Source of the DNA: Candidatus Falkowbacteria bacterium
GTDB taxonomy: Bacteria > Patescibacteriota > Patescibacteriia > UBA11705
Direction: 5' to 3'
NCBI GenBank assembly: GCA_003518055.1
Contig: DOZJ01000002.1
Span: 235,097-299,096 of the forward strand
DNA: 64,000 nt
Part shown: in pieces, positions 3,243 to 58,549 of the stretch
Layout: each line of letters starts with the position of its first letter
How positions within the stretch are numbered: position 1 is the first letter of the stretch
Notes under the pieces: generated by a model
Told to the model about the DNA's origin: nothing
Seen by the model: only the letters and a program-made list of their open reading frames with translations
Database searches by the model: none
Position numbers and translations under genes: made by a program

Positions 3243-4514
3243 TTATTTTAATTTGATTTTATGCACCGTATTTGTCTGCTTGTCAGTAAAAAACAAGCTG
3301 CTGCCGTCTTGGCTCACCTGCATCTGATTTATCGTATATTCGAATTCCGGTTCGGCAATAAAACTGGTGGCTCCGGTGTTGACATCGACTTTATAAATAT
3401 TATCAGGTTCATTGTCAGCCAGCTCCGGAAACCAACCGGCGCCTTCAGGCATTATTTTTGGCACGGCGCAGTACATGGTTGACGCGTTCGCAAAGGTGCA
3501 TTTATCAGCCCAAGTATTAAGGTTGATTTTTTTATGGTTATAACCGATCGCGTCAGGTGAAGCATCGGTCACATAGAGCTGCGGCTTGTTTTCAGACACA
3601 CTGTTGTGCGCGCTGTAAACCATTTTGTCGCCATCAGGATTGAATTGGAGCTGCACGCCAAATCCATTGACGTCAAGCGAGCGATAATTTTCATTGTTTG
3701 GCCCGATAAAATACAGAGTATTGAACTCGCCGCTGGTCGCTTTTTCGTAAGTTGCGATAATTTGATTATTCGGAGACCAGTTGACTTTGACTTTATTATC
3801 TTTGTTGCCGAGAAACTCGACATATTTTTGGCCGGAGCCGTCGGCGCTCGATGTCCCGATAAACCGTTTATCCACATTGGCGTCCATATCTTTGAACGCA
3901 ATTTGGCTTTCGGTTGATGAGAAATCAAAATCAGTCCAGTTGGCCGGCAGCGTAGTTTGAGTTTGAGTTTGAAAATTATAAAGCACATTGGTGCCGTCAG
4001 GAAATTCCATTATGGCTTTTTCAGAGTTTTCAGCCCAAGTAATATTTTTAACTTCGGGAAATCGTCGTTCACTCAATAAGGTCTTTTTCCCATTGCCGTC
4101 GATGCGGTAAAATTGGTCGGTGTCTGAATTGTAGCTCATCAGGTTGTTACCGCTGGCATCAAGACTCATGAACGGGGTAATGCTTAAATCCAAATCGGTG
4201 ATTGATGTTACTCCGCCCGCCGCTGTCTCGGTTGTTGTCTCGGTTGGGATATTCGCCGGTCGGCGCGTTATCAGGCTTTCGGTCACTCCGGGGACTTCCG
4301 GTCCTGTCGGTCCGGTTTCCTCGCCTTTTCTTTCTCCTGAGAGTGGGAGGTCAGACAATTCTTCGGGCGTTAATTCCTCCGGTCCGACCTCTATGACCGG
4401 CCCGCGAAAAAACAAATAATAAATCGCGAACGCGAGGGCTCCAGTGATCAGGATAAAACCAATAACCATGAGGATTTTTTTTAGAGTCAGGATCGGCAGG
4501 TTGAAATTGGGCAT
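3243..4514 (-). CDS. Membrane-anchored TolB-like/PD40 beta-propeller repeat protein
   Basis: N-terminal TM helix (ILMVIGFILITGALAFAIYYLFF), a Pro/Glu/Thr-rich linker, then repeated WSPNNQ/FNPDGDKMVYSA-type beta-propeller blades. It sits 1 nt upstream of the amidase gene, so the two are probably in one operon. Confidence 0.6.
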   Translation of the reverse strand: MPNFNLPILTLKKILMVIGFILITGALAFAIYYLFFRGPVIEVGPEELTPEELSDLPLSGERKGEETGPTGPEVPGVTESLITRRPANIPTETTTETAAGGVTSITDLDLSITPFMSLDASGNNLMSYNSDTDQFYRIDGNGKKTLLSERRFPEVKNITWAENSEKAIMEFPDGTNVLYNFQTQTQTTLPANWTDFDFSSTESQIAFKDMDANVDKRFIGTSSADGSGQKYVEFLGNKDNKVKVNWSPNNQIIATYEKATSGEFNTLYFIGPNNENYRSLDVNGFGVQLQFNPDGDKMVYSAHNSVSENKPQLYVTDASPDAIGYNHKKINLNTWADKCTFANASTMYCAVPKIMPEGAGWFPELADNEPDNIYKVDVNTGATSFIAEPEFEYTINQMQVSQDGSSLFFTDKQTNTVHKIKLK

Positions 4515-10588: not shown

Positions 10589-11722
10589 ATGGGTAAAAAA
10601 ATCGTGGTTTTTGCGCTTGGAGCTTTACTGGTCGGAGCGAGTTTACTGCCGATGGCGGTCAACGCCACCAGCTCGGCCGAAGAAAACTTCTTTGTGCAAA
10701 AGGACAAAGTGGTATCTGAAAATTATTTCAAAGCCGGCAACAATATTGATATCGCCGGCACGCTGGAAAAAGACGCTTATTTGGCCGGTCAAATTATTAA
10801 CATTGATGGTGTGGTCAAAGGAGATGTCTTCGCGGCCGGGAATATTTTGCGCATCAACGGTGTTGTCGAAGGCAGTGTTCGTTTTGTGGGCCAGTCGTTA
10901 ATTATCAACGGCGAGGTCAAGAAAAACGTCATGATGGTTGGCAGTTCTATGACTGTAGACTCCGCGGCCAAAATTGGCTGGGACGCCATGTTCGCTGGTA
11001 ATTTGGTTGAGCTGAACGGCTCGGTTGGCGGTGATGCTCGCTTGACTGGGGCTCTGGCACGGATTAACGGTTCGGTTGCCGGCAATGTTTGGGCCGAAGT
11101 TGAGTCTTTGGAGTTTTTGCCCGAATCAAAAGTTGATGGCCGGGTCGGCTACACCAGCGGCCGCGATGCCGTCGTGGAGCCGGGTGCGACGATTGTCGGT
11201 GGTTTGGAGCGAACTGATTTGACCGCCGGAAAAGACGTTAACACGCCAAGCAAATATGAGGCTTTACTCGGCTGGCTTTTATGGGGCTTTTTGAGCCAGT
11301 TGCTGATCGCAATTGTTTTGATCGCTCTCATGCCAAAACATATTGATCTCGTAGCTGAAGAAGTCAAAAATAATTTTTGGCGGAATTTCGGCTGGGGGTT
11401 GTTGTTTGTCATTGTGACTCCGATTGCCTGTATTTTGGCCATGATTACGGTTATTGGTTTACCTCTGGCGTTTGTTACACTGGTTATCTATTTTATTTTA
11501 TTGTATCTGGCCAAAATTTTCTTTGTCATCGGCTTCATGAAACTGGTGTTCAAGTGGTTCAAACAGAAAGAATGGCACCTCATGCTGCTAGCCGTGATCG
11601 GCCTTTTGGCGCTCGGTCTCGTCTGTGCCATTCCCAATGTCGGCTGGATCGCCGGACTGATTGCGACGGCTACCGGTTTTGGCGCTGTCCTTCAGGTCAA
11701 AAAAGCGGTTTTGATGAAGTGA
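10589..11722 (+). CDS. Secreted/membrane protein with bactofilin-like (polymer-forming beta-helix) repeats and a C-terminal multi-TM region
   Basis: Signal peptide ending in AVNA. Repeated G-x-h-x-h-x-G segments follow (VKGDVFAAGNILRINGVVEGSVRFVGQSLIINGEVKKNVMMVG ...), typical of bactofilin/DUF583 beta-helices. The last 150 aa contain four hydrophobic helices. Confidence 0.55.
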   Translation: MGKKIVVFALGALLVGASLLPMAVNATSSAEENFFVQKDKVVSENYFKAGNNIDIAGTLEKDAYLAGQIINIDGVVKGDVFAAGNILRINGVVEGSVRFVGQSLIINGEVKKNVMMVGSSMTVDSAAKIGWDAMFAGNLVELNGSVGGDARLTGALARINGSVAGNVWAEVESLEFLPESKVDGRVGYTSGRDAVVEPGATIVGGLERTDLTAGKDVNTPSKYEALLGWLLWGFLSQLLIAIVLIALMPKHIDLVAEEVKNNFWRNFGWGLLFVIVTPIACILAMITVIGLPLAFVTLVIYFILLYLAKIFFVIGFMKLVFKWFKQKEWHLMLLAVIGLLALGLVCAIPNVGWIAGLIATATGFGAVLQVKKAVLMK

Positions 11723-11736
11723 TTATTCTTATAAAT

Positions 11737-11768
11737 TATAAAAACGTGGACTTTTTAGTCCACGTTTT
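11737..11768. terminator. Bidirectional rho-independent terminator between convergent genes
   Basis: Perfect inverted repeat AAAACGTGGAC-TTTTTA-GTCCACGTTTT flanked by A/T runs on both sides, lying between a + strand gene end (11722) and a - strand gene end (11777). Confidence 0.75.
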
Positions 11769-11776
11769 ATTTTTTC

Positions 11777-12268
11777 TTATGGTTCAACTTCAAACCATTG
11801 CCAGGTTTTCACGCACCAAGCAGCTTCTTTCCCCAAGTCATCCAACTTGACCTTTCGGCTGAAGTCTTGATCGTTGAAATAATCATAAGCTTCGATGTGC
11901 TTCATGGCAAATGGTAATGGCTCTGCGTTTCCCACAAAAAGCACGACCGGCACCACCAGAATGTTGATTCGCGGTCGCACTTCCATCATTCTGGACTGAT
12001 AATCAGTTCTCGCCGCTTGAATAAAACATGCTTTTGATTGGCCGAGTTCAACCTGGAAAATTGTGCGTTGACCGACGCGCATTTGCAATTCACTGCGATT
12101 GAGAATGTTGGCCGCTGGAAATTCCACGAACCGCCAAAAGATCCGCGGCGGTCTATCATAGGCTTGATGAACATATTCCAGACAGATGGTCCCACTATCC
12201 ATCGGCCCTCCTGCGGTGGTGTGGTTGCCGGAACAATTTACTATAATACTAAATAGCCCGGATGTCAA
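11777..12268 (-). CDS. Hypothetical protein
   Basis: 163-aa ORF with no recognisable motif. It is convergent with the preceding gene across a clean terminator. Confidence 0.4.
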   Translation of the reverse strand: MTSGLFSIIVNCSGNHTTAGGPMDSGTICLEYVHQAYDRPPRIFWRFVEFPAANILNRSELQMRVGQRTIFQVELGQSKACFIQAARTDYQSRMMEVRPRINILVVPVVLFVGNAEPLPFAMKHIEAYDYFNDQDFSRKVKLDDLGKEAAWCVKTWQWFEVEP

Positions 12269-53453: not shown

Positions 53454-53670
53454 TCCTCAAATTTTTATCCTCATTATTCATCCAAAAACCGTATGGCTTC
53501 ATCCGGTTTTTGGTTTGATAAATTTAACCCGATAATATATAGTATTATTACTCAAATGAAATTGTGAAGCTTACTTTTCTCAATTCCCTTAATTCTCTCA
53601 ATTCACTTGATTCTCTCAATCCCGCCTCTCGCGAGAAGCGGGATCAATTCTCTTAATCAACTATTTAAAT

Positions 53671-54231
53671 ATGCCCGCTGTCTTACTCCACACCTGCTGC
53701 GCTCCTTGCGGCGGTTTCGTCATCAAAGAATTGCAAACCATGGGTTATGCTGTTACTGTATTTTATTATAATCCGAATGTATTTCCCGAAGATGAATACA
53801 AACTGAGGCTGCGCGAGGCCGAGCGTTTTTGTCAAAAAGAAAATGTCGAGTTGATTGAAGGGGAATATGATTATGAATCGTGGAAAGAAAAAATAAGGGG
53901 GCATGAATCAGCCCCTGAGCGGGGGAGCCGCTGCGAGATTTGTATAACTTTACGCTTGCAGGAAACCGCTCAAGTCGCCTCGGAGCGAGGGTTTGACGCC
54001 ATCGCCTCGACGTTGACCATCAGCCCGCACAAGTCGGCAGAGATGGTTAATGCCATTGGTCACGAAATGGCGGATTTATACGGACTGCAATTTATCGATC
54101 GGATCTGGCGCAAAGCCAACGGGTTTAAAAAATCCTGTGATTTGGCTGAACAGGAACATTTTCATCGCCAAGACTACTGTGGCTGCGAGTTTTCAATTCG
54201 GTCAAAACCAACTATTGACAAGGTCGAATAA
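53671..54231 (+). CDS. queH: Epoxyqueuosine reductase QueH (DUF208)
   Basis: LLHTCCAPCGG N-terminal Cys motif, conserved RCEICITLR and the CGCEFS C-terminal Cys pair. About 186 aa. Confidence 0.8.
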   Translation: MPAVLLHTCCAPCGGFVIKELQTMGYAVTVFYYNPNVFPEDEYKLRLREAERFCQKENVELIEGEYDYESWKEKIRGHESAPERGSRCEICITLRLQETAQVASERGFDAIASTLTISPHKSAEMVNAIGHEMADLYGLQFIDRIWRKANGFKKSCDLAEQEHFHRQDYCGCEFSIRSKPTIDKVE

Positions 54232-54725
54232 TGGAGCTAAATTGGAACATTCCAATCCGATTCGCTATCCAGACCCAAGGAGGTGAGACGATGACACAGA
54301 AACGCTTCAAGATTCTGATTTTTGGCGCGAGAGGCAATGATTTCTCGATGATGGTCAAATCATTTCTGTCCGCTGTTATGGACCAAGATCCTGAAGACTT
54401 GTGTACCTTTGAATATGTCTTTCCGCTTGACTCGAAAAATCCGGAATTAAGCCTAAAGCGTTATGCTGGTCGTGAATTTGATCTGATTGTTGTAGATTTT
54501 TATCCGACACATACGGCTCAAAGTTGGATTGATATTTTTTACCATTCGCTGAGCTTGGATCAAAGACACCGTCTTGTTGTGCATTTTTCTGAGCTTCGAC
54601 TTGATCCCGCCGTTGAGTATCCTATCCCCATGAAGTATCATCATTATCCGAGAATTGCTGCCAATGCCGATTCTTATGATGATGAAAAAGCTATTTTTAG
54701 AAAACTGCTAAAACTAGACGCATAA
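54231..54725 (+). CDS. Small protein A1 of a duplicated cassette (hypothetical, Rossmann-like beginning)
   Basis: Likely start MTQKRFKILIFGARGND at 54291 after AAGGAGG. Paralogous to 55747-56163 (KRWKVLLFGAINGRHH). Confidence 0.5.
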   Translation: MELNWNIPIRFAIQTQGGETMTQKRFKILIFGARGNDFSMMVKSFLSAVMDQDPEDLCTFEYVFPLDSKNPELSLKRYAGREFDLIVVDFYPTHTAQSWIDIFYHSLSLDQRHRLVVHFSELRLDPAVEYPIPMKYHHYPRIAANADSYDDEKAIFRKLLKLDA

Positions 54726-54756
54726 TCTATTTTAAGTCAATTACAATTGACTTTTT

Positions 54757-55215
54757 TTGTTTTATATGATATACTTTAACATCCCGACCAGCCACCACTG
54801 CCGGCAATTATCATGGACCAATAGTGGTCCCATTTGCCAGTGGAGGTGCACTATGGGCTCAGCTTACACGTCGGCCCGGGTGGTTGGCAGCATCGATATT
54901 TCTAATCGTTGCCGTCGGGATTGGAGTGCTTTTGCTCTTTTTCTCGAGGAAATGGAAACCAACGTGCCGGATCTCGGCTATTTCTGGGTATTCGAAGGGA
55001 GGTATTACTCTCTGTCGTTGATGGCCAGGATTGTGTCTGACCTCCTGACCACAGCTGAGACTTTGGGTACTACCGTGTATGGTCTGTTTGAAGCAGAGGC
55101 GCTTAGCCTAGCGGAATTTTACTGTGTGGATCGATGGTTCGGCTGCTGGTGCTGCCTTCCGGGCGGACCAGGGCATATCTATCCGGCTGACCCGCCAATG
55201 GCCGAGCAGGACTAA
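54757..55215 (+). CDS. Small protein B1 of the duplicated cassette, with an FGCxC motif
   Basis: Likely start MGSAYTS at 54853 after GGAGGTG. The C-terminus AETLGTTVYGLFEAE ... VDRWFGCWCCLPGGPGHIYPADPP is paralogous to B2. Confidence 0.5.
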   Translation: MFYMIYFNIPTSHHCRQLSWTNSGPICQWRCTMGSAYTSARVVGSIDISNRCRRDWSAFALFLEEMETNVPDLGYFWVFEGRYYSLSLMARIVSDLLTTAETLGTTVYGLFEAEALSLAEFYCVDRWFGCWCCLPGGPGHIYPADPPMAEQD

Positions 55216-55585
55216 CCGATTGCACCCACCCCCAACCCCAGACCAAGGAGCTTTTGATGTCAGGCCATGTTGGCCTAATCATCAAGGGGGTGACGTGGTT
55301 AACAAAAACCACACCGGCGTCGACGAGTTGGCTGCCAGAGCCGAGTCTCTGGGGACCTCTCTGTACAACCTGTATGAGCTCGGTCAGCTGACGCCGTCCG
55401 AGCAGGATATGTTGGTCGATCACTTCGGGTGTGTCTGCTTGATTCCGGGCTCACCCGAGCATAGCTATGCCGATTCGCCGTGGTCCCGCTACGCCGGGAC
55501 AACTTCGCTTCGGGACTTCGATCCGGGCAAGTTGGGCCGGCTGTCAAAGGCGGCTCGGCGGGAACTCGCGCGTTGGCAGAAATAG
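55124..55585 (+). CDS. Small protein B2 of the duplicated cassette, with an FGCxC motif
   Basis: Likely GTG start at about 55295 after GGGGG. AESLGTSLYNLYELG ... VDHFGCVCLIPGSPEHSYADSPW. Followed by a hairpin plus T-run at about 55605-55640. Confidence 0.45.
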   Translation: MWIDGSAAGAAFRADQGISIRLTRQWPSRTNRLHPPPTPDQGAFDVRPCWPNHQGGDVVNKNHTGVDELAARAESLGTSLYNLYELGQLTPSEQDMLVDHFGCVCLIPGSPEHSYADSPWSRYAGTTSLRDFDPGKLGRLSKAARRELARWQK

Positions 55586-55746
55586 TAAAAACTTTTTCTT
55601 TGTGTGGTGGTCTCAAATTTAGGGGCCACTTTTTTGTTTTGTTAGTGACACCCAAAACATGCGTTACCTTTATAAGCAACGATTGACAGGTTGATTTATA
55701 AGTGTTACTCTTGTATTCAGTTCGTTCGCCACCAAAGGAGGTCTGA

Positions 55747-56163
55747 ATGGCGGTTCCGGTCAAGAAACGATGGAAAGTGTTGCTTTTTGGCGCGATTAAC
55801 GGTCGTCACCATCTGATTTTGAATGCCTTTCTCGGTCCTTTTACCGAGCATGGCTACAAGTTCAAAATCGAGGGTGCTTTCGGTCGTTTCGGCCATTATC
55901 AGCCGGAAATGGTTAGCCGCGATGACTATGATTTTGTCTTCGTCCCGGTTACGGACAAAGTTCTGGATTTCTGGTCAATGACCGAATCATCCCTGCGTCT
56001 GCAAACCAATTTCCCGGCAGTTGTTCTCTGCCGCAATGGTGTCAATATCAAGTTCCCGCTGCCGGCGTCACTCGTTGATCGGCCAATGGTCAATGAAGCG
56101 GTGACCGATGTGGAAATTCTGAAGTTCGCCATCTCGTTGGGCTTGCCCCGAGAGCTGGTTTGA
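55747..56163 (+). CDS. Small protein A2 of the duplicated cassette
   Basis: SD AAAGGAGG. N-terminus MAVPVKKRWKVLLFGAINGRHH is paralogous to A1. Confidence 0.5.
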   Translation: MAVPVKKRWKVLLFGAINGRHHLILNAFLGPFTEHGYKFKIEGAFGRFGHYQPEMVSRDDYDFVFVPVTDKVLDFWSMTESSLRLQTNFPAVVLCRNGVNIKFPLPASLVDRPMVNEAVTDVEILKFAISLGLPRELV

Positions 56164-56381
56164 TGCCCACAGCCAAACACGGAGGATGCATGGGGGAGCA
56201 CGATCGAGTTGAAATCAGAAACGCAGTGACGCCGACGCTTATTTCGCCCATGACAATCAGTCAAGAGCTAGGCGCGGACATTGTCGCCATCAGATGCCAT
56301 TGTGGTGATCATTTGAATGTCCGGACTCACCTAGTTGAATTGATCTGTCGGGGATGCGGCCTGATTCACCGCGTGCGGTAA
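56160..56381 (+). CDS. Small Cys-rich (zinc-ribbon-like) protein
   Basis: SD GGAGGATG. Contains CHCGDH ... CRGCG. Overlaps the A2 stop by 4 nt. Confidence 0.45.
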   Translation: MMPTAKHGGCMGEHDRVEIRNAVTPTLISPMTISQELGADIVAIRCHCGDHLNVRTHLVELICRGCGLIHRVR

Positions 56382-56566
56382 GTTTCATATTTGCCTGAAT
56401 AACAATTCAGGTTTTTTGTTTCAAAAAAACTATGTTAAAATACTTCCAGTCTAAATCCCAGATTTTTTACGAAGCGAAGCATAAATCACCAATCACGAAG
56501 CAGTTGTCCCTAGTTCCTTGTCTCTAGTTCCCAGTTCCCAGTCTCTATTCACTAATCGCTCCCCCC

Positions 56567-58549
56567 ATGCCCATCAACTACAAACAAGAACTCAACCCCG
56601 AGCAATACGCGGTCATAGCCTCAGGCGACGGCCCGTGTTTGGTTTTGGCTGGCGCCGGCAGCGGCAAGACTCGAACTTTGGTTTATCGGGTGGCTTTTTT
56701 ATTGGAGCGGGGAGTGTCGCCGGAGAATATTTTACTTGTAACCTTCACCAACAAGGCCGCGAATGAGATGAAGGAGCGGGTAAAACAATTATTGGGTTTC
56801 AAGCCGGATGGTTTGTATGCCGGAACATTCCATTCCGTCGCCAACCTTTTGCTCCGCCGCCATGCTGATCACCTCGGGTATCAAAAAAACTTCAATATTC
56901 TGGATCAGGAAGACAGTGTATCTTTGATTAAAGGTTGTATGGAGGATTTGAACTTGAATGTCAGAGGTCAAAATTTCCCCAAGGCCAACGTGGTCCAATC
57001 AATAATCTCTTATGCCCGCAACTGTCATCAGGATATAGCGGCGGTGGTGGCCGATCGTTATGGCTATCCGCAGGTTGTGTCTGAACAATTTGATCGGATC
57101 GCCCAAAATTATCACGCCAAGAAAAAGCAGGCCAATGTGATGGATTTTGACGATTTGCTTTTTAATTGGCTCAAACTGCTCGAAGATTTTCCGGCTGTCA
57201 AGGAGCAATTATCAAATCAGTTTAAATACATTTTGGTTGATGAATATCAGGACACCAATTATATCCAAGCCGCGATCATCAAACATTTGGCCGGCGCGGC
57301 CAAGAATGTTTTGGTGGTTGGTGACGATAGTCAGAGTATTTACAGCTTCCGGGCCGCCGATGTGGCCAACATTCTTGATTTCCCCAAGCAGTTTCCGGCG
57401 GCGCGCGTTTTCCGGATTGAAAAAAATTATCGCTCCACCCCGGAAATATTATCCTTGGCCAATGAAGTTATCAAGCACAACCGCGATAAATTTGAAAAAA
57501 ATCTTCAGCCGGTGCGCGTCAGCGGCCAGCTGCCGGTTTTGATTCCGGCGCGTGATGTCTATCAGCAGGCTCATTTGGTGTCCAATAAAATTATTGACCT
57601 TAGGGATCAGGGGGTGGACTATGTTAATATGGCCGTTTTATTCCGGTCAACCTTTCATTCGGCTGAATTGCAGCTTGAGCTCGCCAAACGAAATATTCCA
57701 TTTATTCTGCGCGGCGGCCAGCGGTATTTTGAGCAGGCGCACGTCAAAGACATGGTGTCGTATTTGAAAATTTTAGCGAACTTCAAAGATGAGTTGTCGT
57801 GGAAACGGGTGCTGCGTCTTTACGACGGCATCGGCGCCGCCGCCGCGGACAACATTTGGTCTTCGATTCAAAATTATTCTACGTTGGTTGAATTGATCAC
57901 CCAGAACTTCCCCATCAAAAACGCCCGCGCTCGATCCAGCTGGTCGCGGCTGGTTACCATGTTCCAATCTTTGACCTCAATTGATGTAACTCAAAGAGGC
58001 TCCTTGGCTGAAGTCGTGATTCATGTGATGGAAGCCGGTTACAAGGATTATCTCAAAAACACATTCGACAATTACAAAGATCGTTTGGATGACTTGCAGC
58101 AGTTCGTGGATTTTGTCATGACTTACGACAGCCTGGATACGTTGCTGGCTGATGTCATGTTGAGTGAAAATTTTGCTCATGATAATTCCAAGGACAAGGA
58201 CAATGCGGTTATCTTGACGACCATTCATCAGGCCAAGGGGCTGGAGTGGAAATATGTCATGATCATCGGCGCTCGCAACGGCGACTTTCCGCATTACAAA
58301 AGTTTGGACAACCTCAAAGAGCTCGAAGAAGAGCGACGGTTGTTTTACGTGGCGGTGACTCGGGCCAAGGACGAATTATATTTATTTTATCCGATTCGCA
58401 AAAACACGTTTCAATATGGTGAGATGACCGGCGGACCGTCGATGTTTATCTCCGAGGTTGACGATTCCAAATATCGAACGACCGGAGCCAATCGGTTTAT
58501 TTCTGAGGATGATCCGTGGGAGCGGGAGGAAACTGTATATTATGATTAG
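56567..58549 (+). CDS. uvrD: UvrD/PcrA/Rep-family ATP-dependent DNA helicase
   Basis: Walker A AGAGSGKTRTLVYR, motif II VDEYQDTN, motif III/IV and C-terminal helicase motifs (TIHQAKGLEW; FYVAVTRAK). Confidence 0.9.
   Translation: MPINYKQELNPEQYAVIASGDGPCLVLAGAGSGKTRTLVYRVAFLLERGVSPENILLVTFTNKAANEMKERVKQLLGFKPDGLYAGTFHSVANLLLRRHADHLGYQKNFNILDQEDSVSLIKGCMEDLNLNVRGQNFPKANVVQSIISYARNCHQDIAAVVADRYGYPQVVSEQFDRIAQNYHAKKKQANVMDFDDLLFNWLKLLEDFPAVKEQLSNQFKYILVDEYQDTNYIQAAIIKHLAGAAKNVLVVGDDSQSIYSFRAADVANILDFPKQFPAARVFRIEKNYRSTPEILSLANEVIKHNRDKFEKNLQPVRVSGQLPVLIPARDVYQQAHLVSNKIIDLRDQGVDYVNMAVLFRSTFHSAELQLELAKRNIPFILRGGQRYFEQAHVKDMVSYLKILANFKDELSWKRVLRLYDGIGAAAADNIWSSIQNYSTLVELITQNFPIKNARARSSWSRLVTMFQSLTSIDVTQRGSLAEVVIHVMEAGYKDYLKNTFDNYKDRLDDLQQFVDFVMTYDSLDTLLADVMLSENFAHDNSKDKDNAVILTTIHQAKGLEWKYVMIIGARNGDFPHYKSLDNLKELEEERRLFYVAVTRAKDELYLFYPIRKNTFQYGEMTGGPSMFISEVDDSKYRTTGANRFISEDDPWEREETVYYD

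Follow-up and report, generated by a model that had tools for sequence, protein, structure and literature searches.

What kind of system is formed by five adjacent small genes that carry no functional annotation? The question is raised by a cluster in contig DOZJ01000002.1, from a Candidatus Falkowbacteria metagenome-assembled genome, of which we analyzed a stretch of 64,000 nt (hereafter the window; coordinates without a prefix are window positions). Five co-directional open reading frames (ORFs), all on the + strand, lie within 54231-56381. They correspond to the NCBI genes DF272_02400 to DF272_02420, every one of which is annotated as 'hypothetical protein', and we refer to them as A1, B1, B2, A2 and Zn. 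An earlier note on this DNA had described them as a GC-rich, mirror-duplicated A1-B1-B2-A2 cassette followed by a zinc-ribbon gene. Here, we describe a clade-restricted, vertically inherited five-gene cluster, for which we propose a thiol- or metal-dependent module centered on the B proteins. Taken as a whole, this statement is tentative, with the balance leaning against it; that the five genes are genuine, lineage-specific orphans is, on its own, very probable.

Five small orphan genes lie between queH and uvrD

All five ORFs listed in the earlier note were recovered on the + strand and match the NCBI genes, and each is preceded by a Shine-Dalgarno (SD)-like sequence (5/5), in agreement with the strong SDs that had been claimed. 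A1 (54291-54725, 144 aa, DF272_02400) has the SD GGAGGTGA. The start at 54231 that had been assigned to the cluster is merely the ATG that gives the longest ORF, and there is overlap with the stop codon of queH; the SD-bearing start, which is kept in the orthologue, is located at 54291. A1 is followed by B1 (54853-55215, 120 aa, DF272_02405, SD GGAGGTG) and by its paralogue B2 (55295-55585, 96 aa, DF272_02410), which begins with a GTG preceded by GGGGGTGA. A longer B2 ORF, starting at 55124 and overlapping B1, was discarded, its N-terminal extension (55124-55294) not being coding-like by codon score. A2 (55747-56163, 138 aa, DF272_02415, SD AAAGGAGG) and Zn (56190-56381, 63 aa, DF272_02420, SD GGAGGA) complete the cluster, Zn starting 27 nt past the A2 stop. 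The upstream neighbor is queH (53671-54231) and the downstream neighbor uvrD/pcrA (56567-58549); QueH, UvrD and a holin-family membrane protein are the called neighbors of the cluster.

For A1, B1, B2 and A2, the annotated frame had the top codon log-likelihood of the six frames, with positive values throughout (+0.07 to +0.20; +0.16 for A1, +0.07 for B1 and +0.20 for A2), long reference genes scoring 0.25 +/- 0.07. Zn scored slightly negative (-0.10), yet its frame was the top one of its six. Orthologues from a second Falkowbacteria genome, Candidatus Falkowbacteria CG10_big_fil_rev_8_21_14_0_10_39_11 (L014), share 38-39% identity with A1, 66-67% with B2, 42-43% with A2 and 33% with Zn (E=6e-11). 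The proportions of differing nonsynonymous and synonymous sites (pN/pS) relative to these orthologues were 0.39/0.66 for A1, 0.23/0.64 for B2, 0.36/0.75 for A2 and 0.47/0.81 for Zn. Because pN is well below pS, these four genes are under purifying selection. The same calculation gave 0.13/0.89 for QueH and 0.12/0.76 for UvrD. Expressed as nonsynonymous divergence (dN), the cluster genes reach 0.27-0.75 versus 0.13-0.14 in the flanks: amino-acid change is about 3-4 times faster in the cluster than in its housekeeping neighbors. A structured non-coding RNA was ruled out as an explanation of the GC-rich islet. The Rfam search of the window at gathering thresholds returned 0 matches and the tRNA scan none, so that the GC-rich stretch is no known structured RNA, and its divergence tracks codon positions.

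The B proteins share an invariant CxC motif

The paralogy of B1 and B2, together with their common motif, is well founded. The two proteins align by BLASTP with E=1e-12 and 34% identity over 105 aa, their local score reaches z=20 relative to 2000 shuffles, and nucleotide identity at codon positions 1, 2 and 3 is 0.59, 0.63 and 0.39, a coding-type pattern of divergence. A HMMER profile built from B1 and B2 and run exhaustively against 1.84 billion cluster representatives retrieved three proteins only: B1 itself, the B2 orthologue P0004 (95 aa), and P0005 (100 aa, E=2.9e-4), which carries YGCWCCFPGSYGPCY. P0005 is encoded in a more distant population (L010) and shares 29% identity with B2 (E=5e-10). 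When B1, A2 and A1 were looked up in a word index of 5.8 billion proteins, self matches alone came back; this search missed the 38-67% identical L014 orthologues present in the same collection and is therefore uninformative on homologues. A match to FGCSCLIPGS in a Solirubrobacterales genome (L015) was set aside as a chance pattern inside a junk ORF of high-GC DNA.

The alignment of the four B sequences (B1, B2, P0004 and P0005; numbering of B2) contains ten invariant residues, E17, L19, Y24, E36, G45, C46, C48, P51, G52 and Y58, the last six of which define the motif G-C-x-C-x2-P-G-x5-Y. Both cysteines of the FGCxC element highlighted in the earlier note, C46 and C48, are thus conserved in all sequences. 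His56 is present in 3/4 sequences, and the remaining one has a Cys at position 57. B2, P0004 and P0005 have in common a basic C-terminal helix (...RRELARWQK); B1 lacks this basic tail and has a unique N-terminus of 60 aa.

An AlphaFold2 model of B2, computed from the four-sequence alignment, has a mean predicted local distance difference test score (pLDDT) of 78.7, about 90 over residues 10-50, and a predicted template modeling score of 0.64. It comprises helices at residues 6-19, 23-28 and 34-44, the CxC immediately past helix 3, a short beta hairpin and two C-terminal helices. The model predicts that B is a folded small protein of ~95-100 aa with a three-helix N-terminal part. The Cys motif of B2 occupies residues 45-58 of 96, within the most conserved block of the protein, and is followed by a conserved 38-aa tail. 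The leader/core organization that had been considered for B is not found: the motif lies mid-sequence in a predicted fold with a conserved tail, and no conserved leader precedes a variable core.

Searches of Pfam, NCBIfam, PADLOC and PHROGs with the five proteins and their orthologues yielded only sub-threshold zinc-ribbon matches, the A and B families, searched as profiles, had no significant match among PDB sequences, and the PADLOC-DB defense models returned 0 families for the five proteins and the L010 homologues. The statement that the cluster matches no nameable family therefore stands. We conclude that B2 is a conserved member of a new B family and that this family, as well as the A family as far as tested, is outside all described families and fold groups, and new in this narrow sense.

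The A proteins are probably remote paralogues and probably not enzymes

A1 and A2 had also been presented as paralogues, but their similarity is much weaker than that of B1 and B2. BLASTP aligns only 26 N-terminal residues (E=2e-4), the local z is 5, with 2/2000 shuffles reaching the score, and at the DNA level the two genes share a 33-nt match at 76%. Comparison by hhalign of the A1 orthologue pair with the A2 pair gave E=1.7e-4 and a probability of 50% over 86 collinear columns, suggesting that A1 and A2 are probably remote paralogues. Collinear alignments were also obtained for a 133-aa protein of L010, both with the A1 pair (hhalign E=2.6e-4) and with the A2 pair (E=2e-3). A 146-aa protein of the same locus was rejected as a family member (hhalign E 0.35-0.82, no alignment with the A1 or A2 pair).

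In the five-member A alignment, the invariant columns are hydrophobic only, with no catalytic residues conserved. For this reason an enzymatic role is disfavored, and the earlier description of an enzyme-like A next to a substrate-like B is not borne out; A is probably a non-enzymatic alpha/beta protein of ~135-145 aa. A CheY-like (pseudo-)receiver was also rejected: no Pfam Response_reg match was obtained at E<=10, and hhalign of the A family versus CheY gave a probability of 0.3%. Unlike a receiver domain, A1 has a predicted beta-alpha-beta-beta-alpha-beta...alpha order, with no helix between strands 2 and 3. Ferredoxin-like domains such as ACT and HPPK have the beta-alpha-beta-beta-alpha-beta order, but A differs from them in sequence (hhalign probability of 0.2% versus Escherichia coli FolK, no Pfam match), and the structural matches of A1 to these folds are unreliable because the underlying model, from a two-sequence alignment, has a pLDDT of 48.

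Zn resembles zinc-ribbon proteins

Like zinc-ribbon and rubredoxin-like small proteins, Zn has two Cys knuckles, CxCG and CxxCG, 14 residues apart (CxCG...CxxCG). All four cysteines, C36, C38, C53 and C56, are kept in the L014 orthologue at 33% identity. It differs from these proteins in its scores, which stay below the gathering thresholds of the Pfam zinc-ribbon models (E=0.0013; 18.7 bits versus a cut-off of 27 for PF23547, and 14.8 versus 27 for PF14599), and in its 35-aa N-terminal part, which is unmatched. Zn accompanies A2 in 2/3 lineages, and no Zn homologue was found in L010.

The cluster occupies a fixed site in three populations

Contig look-up and scans of GTDB species genomes and Joint Genome Institute (JGI) metagenomes revealed the locus in three populations only, all Falkowbacteria-like and from groundwater or marine samples: that of the window itself, that of L014 with identical contigs, and a more distant population of the Candidate Phyla Radiation (CPR) from JGI metagenomes (L010 and identical contigs). 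Relative to the UvrD of the window, that of L014 is 80% identical and that of L010 59%. In 3/3 populations, the genes occupy the queH-uvrD/pcrA interval of a common backbone, gatC-gatA...holin-family protein...queH...uvrD. No relatives were found in phage, plasmid and IMG/VR collections. Because the site is the same in three populations and these collections hold no relatives, the cluster is clade-specific and vertically inherited rather than a recent island. A mobile-element origin was likewise rejected, flanking repeats being absent as well.

Gene content within the interval varies. The L014 order is queH-A1-psiB1-B2-A2-Zn-uvrD, with A1 starting 60-66 nt past queH in this lineage and in the window. 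In psiB1 (L014:1090-1240), the first 18 codons are left, ~215 nt are deleted, a frameshift is present, and the second Cys codon of FGCWCC has changed from TGC to TGA. Since the deletion, the frameshift and the TGA occur together, we read the TGA as recent pseudogenization and not as recoding. The surviving 3' codons of psiB1 differ from the window mainly at synonymous positions; the B1/B2 duplication is therefore older than the window/L014 split and the loss of B1 recent. B1 is thus a tandem duplicate predating that split, and a dispensable one, since it has decayed in L014.

In L010, queH is followed by two membrane proteins of 259 and 243 aa, B (100 aa), the 146-aa protein, a 550-nt stretch of unclear content, the 133-aa A-like protein, whose gene ends 69 nt before uvrD, and uvrD. 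The two membrane proteins (L010:8211-9838) are paralogous, have no Pfam or PADLOC match and have no counterpart at the window site. A-type and B-type genes had been expected to occur together in other genomes, and since they do so in both L014 (A1-psiB1-B2-A2-Zn) and L010 (B...A-like), the earlier pairing survives to that extent. Sequence comparison of the three loci shows a conserved core made up of one B gene and one or more genes of the A type. The A1-B1-B2-A2 layout, by comparison, occurs in the lineage of the window alone and is not the conserved unit: B1 is a pseudogene in L014, a single B is found in L010, and A and B fall in separate predicted transcription units.

One further contig carries part of the cluster. 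In L004 (JGI Ga0103681_1058318, 1973 bp), positions 156-1339 match window 54436-55619 at 99.7% identity and hold the 3' two-thirds of A1 as well as B1 and B2, with one internal single-nucleotide polymorphism (Val to Ile in A1). On both sides, this segment is flanked by unrelated low-GC DNA with a truncated shikimate dehydrogenase and an AraC-type regulator. L004 is most likely a double assembly chimera and, less probably, a real transfer into another organism.

Predicted signals suggest three transcription units

Promoter- and terminator-like signals, all on the + strand, suggest that the cluster is divided into three transcription units, A1, B1-B2 and A2-Zn. A promoter-like site precedes A1 (54215..54243, TTGACA-17-TAAATT), and its -35 element TTGACA is also found at the equivalent position of L014. 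Predicted terminator-like hairpins separate A1 from B1 and B2 from A2. The former, identified by sequence inspection (54734..54760), is an A/T-rich stem, AAGTCAATT-AC-AATTGACTT, followed by a T-run; its stem contains too few G-C pairs to have been listed by the terminator scan. There is overlap between the 3' arm of this hairpin and the -35 element of the promoter that follows. That promoter-like site, assigned to B1-B2 (54747..54775, TTGACT-17-TATACT), has a TG extension and 10/12 matches and is kept in L014; the L010 B gene is preceded by TTGACA-17-TATACT. The terminator scan detected an intrinsic-terminator-like hairpin with a T-run after B2 (55606..55640) and a terminator-like hairpin with a T-run after Zn (56393..56422), a similar hairpin following the L014 Zn gene.

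Both B genes are preceded by a segment that folds so that the SD is paired with a CCACC/CACCCC element further upstream, the two enclosing an inner hairpin. In the B1 leader (54782..54852), the anti-SD CCACCACUG (54792-54800) pairs with the SD region and the inner hairpin is at 54815-54830. In the B1-B2 spacer (55216..55294), the anti-SD CACCCACCCCC (55223-55233) pairs with the SD GGGGGUGA (55286-55293) and the start codon. The architecture of both is also present in L014, with two compensatory changes, a hint that the B leaders may be translational damping or control elements.

Base composition and repeats

The description of the region as GC-rich applies to B1-B2 (0.54-0.60) and to A2-Zn (0.51-0.53), but not to A1 (0.40), which is under the window mean of 0.458. 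GC content at the third codon position (GC3) of B2, A2 and Zn (55295-56381 in the window, L014:1302-2338) and of the B and A-like genes of L010 (L010:10001-10303 and 11412-11813) is 0.1-0.25 above that of the flanking queH and uvrD in 3/3 lineages. This elevation is puzzling because an old acquisition should by now be ameliorated, synonymous sites being saturated between the lineages. Codon selection, expression level and repeated exchange are candidate causes.

The mirror duplication proposed in the earlier note does not hold at the DNA level: all genes are on one strand, and no inverted or direct repeats were found flanking the cluster. Repeats do occur in the surrounding intergenic DNA, as 14/21-nt units in ~2 copies upstream of uvrD (56504-56554), an 18-nt x 2.8 array upstream of queH (53570-53620) and, in the 1.1-kb spacer upstream of uvrD in L014, a 24-nt unit x 9.3 and a second block of 2.8 copies (L014:2470-2692 and 3317-3382). 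These repeats near queH and uvrD are head-to-tail and do not resemble arrays of clustered regularly interspaced short palindromic repeats (CRISPR).

Near the end of the window, ~6 kb downstream of the cluster, begins a Cas12a/Cpf1 gene with REC1, PI-like and RuvC domains (62670-64000, continuing in L001:17818-20363). Gene calling yields two ORFs for it (723 and 718 aa), split by an in-frame stop (...EGDW*KMEYK..., L001:19987-19989) that lies outside the window and may reflect a pseudogene, a sequencing error or read-through.

A proposed thiol- or metal-dependent module and its rivals

What might these proteins do? Our proposal is that B would be a small thiol- or metal-dependent switch or adaptor, possibly regulatory. 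The CxC pair, together with the nearby His56/Cys57, would provide either a redox-active disulfide or a metal site shared between subunits, and contact with nucleic acid or with a partner would be made through the basic tail. B would have the A proteins and the zinc ribbon as its non-enzymatic binding partners, and the SD-sequestering leaders would damp the translation of B1 and B2. We infer every step of this mechanism. The grounds are the motif and the predicted fold, the absence of conserved catalytic residues from A, and the fact that the genes occur together. CxC pairs are a motif of redox-active sites, and the redox-switch zinc centre of Hsp33 combines a CxC with a CxxC. The resemblance to Hsp33 is at the motif level only: Zn has the same CxC...CxxC ligand pattern and B a CxC pair, but the cluster proteins have no sequence match to HSP33 or another Pfam model.

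Several observations weigh against this proposal. The invariant cysteines of B are two only, too few for a monomeric metal site, which is the reason for placing the putative site between subunits. Helix 3 of B is acidic and the net charge of B1 is -9, and a classical DNA-binding helix-turn-helix is therefore disfavored. The A1 model is poor. The folding energies of the B leaders are not significantly different from those of shuffled sequences, being 1-2.9 standard deviations better (z from -1 to -2.9). Finally, fast evolution and elevated GC3 fit a conflict system equally well. We regard the switch or adaptor mechanism, taken alone, as doubtful. The broader claim that B founds an undescribed CxC thiol/metal-switch family and forms, with A and the zinc ribbon, a CPR-specific regulatory or conflict module held at one site with persistently elevated GC3 is similarly speculative.

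The alternative that survives best, although unlikely, is that of a conflict module, toxin-antitoxin-like or directed against phage or host, in which one of the A and B proteins would be toxic and the other would neutralize it, the duplicated pairs reflecting arms-race turnover. As in type II toxin-antitoxin pairs, the genes are small (~95 and ~140 aa), adjacent, fast-evolving and patchy between lineages, with psiB1 in L014 and, in L010, no Zn and other genes instead. They are paired and without a known family, their amino-acid divergence is 3-4 times that of the flanks, their GC3 is deviant, and the Cas12a locus lies ~6 kb downstream. By contrast, no toxin, antitoxin or defense family was matched in PADLOC, Pfam and NCBIfam. 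The members of a toxin-antitoxin pair usually share a transcript, but the predictions place A and B in different units, set apart by terminators. The position in the core genome is syntenic and fixed in three lineages, with no mobile-element hallmarks and no phage or plasmid relatives, and A has no conserved polar or catalytic residues.

The invariant queH-uvrD location (3/3 lineages) raises a second alternative, that the genes encode accessory factors of their neighbors, for example a Cys or metal protein serving QueH (an Fe-S enzyme that acts in queuosine synthesis) or a protein that partners the UvrD/PcrA helicase. The proximity of A1 to queH in two lineages (60-66 nt), and of the L010 A-like gene to uvrD (69 nt), would fit such a role. 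However, two membrane proteins intervene between queH and B in L010, predicted promoters and terminators set the units apart from queH and uvrD, and the adjacency may merely reflect the conserved gatCA...queH...uvrD synteny. Moreover, QueH and UvrD are widespread, and only three populations are known to have A and B. We consider this alternative distinctly improbable.

It is even harder to regard the ORFs as decaying or spurious, for example as the remnant of an old insertion without present function. The B1 pseudogene of L014, the codon score of B1 (the lowest of the four A/B genes), the slightly negative score of Zn and the extreme narrowness of the family would all agree with decay. Yet pN is clearly lower than pS for A1, B2, A2 and Zn at saturated synonymous sites, two or three lineages have intact ORFs with SDs, the Cys ligands and the motif of B persist at 29-33% identity, and the fold of B2 is confidently predicted. 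We consider decay very improbable.

Last, the reading of B1/B2 as Cys-containing precursors and A1/A2 as modifying enzymes of a ribosomally synthesized and post-translationally modified peptide (RiPP) cluster, suggested by small proteins with a conserved Cys motif beside larger proteins without known family, the pair being duplicated, is barely credible and largely refuted already: Pfam and NCBIfam identify no known RiPP modifying enzyme, RiPP recognition element, protease or exporter in A1, A2, Zn or the called neighbors, the genes called in the 10 kb to each side include no leader protease or dedicated exporter, residues of a catalytic type are not conserved in A, and B is predicted to be helical and folded, with its motif in the conserved center ahead of the 38-aa tail, the opposite of a leader followed by a variable C-terminal core.

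An orphan cluster of the Candidate Phyla Radiation

About half of the genes in CPR bacteria lack annotation, and their lineage-specific proteins are thought to underlie a symbiotic lifestyle. At present, the locus stands as a clean case of a genuine cluster of orphan genes and not as a recognizable new system. Such a cluster is unsurprising in itself because families with enrichment in Parcubacteria are reported to be 'primarily hypothetical proteins' (Meheust et al. 2019, PMC6744442). The genes described here are of the same general kind as these CPR-enriched families, but far narrower, being found in three populations instead of radiation-wide. Their practical weight is limited, as these populations are uncultivated and no phenotype is linked to the genes. 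B, whose fold is confidently predicted and has no PDB neighbor, would be inexpensive to express, to analyze for metals and to study structurally. Should B, A and Zn really act together, they would constitute a new small-protein module specific to one branch of the CPR.

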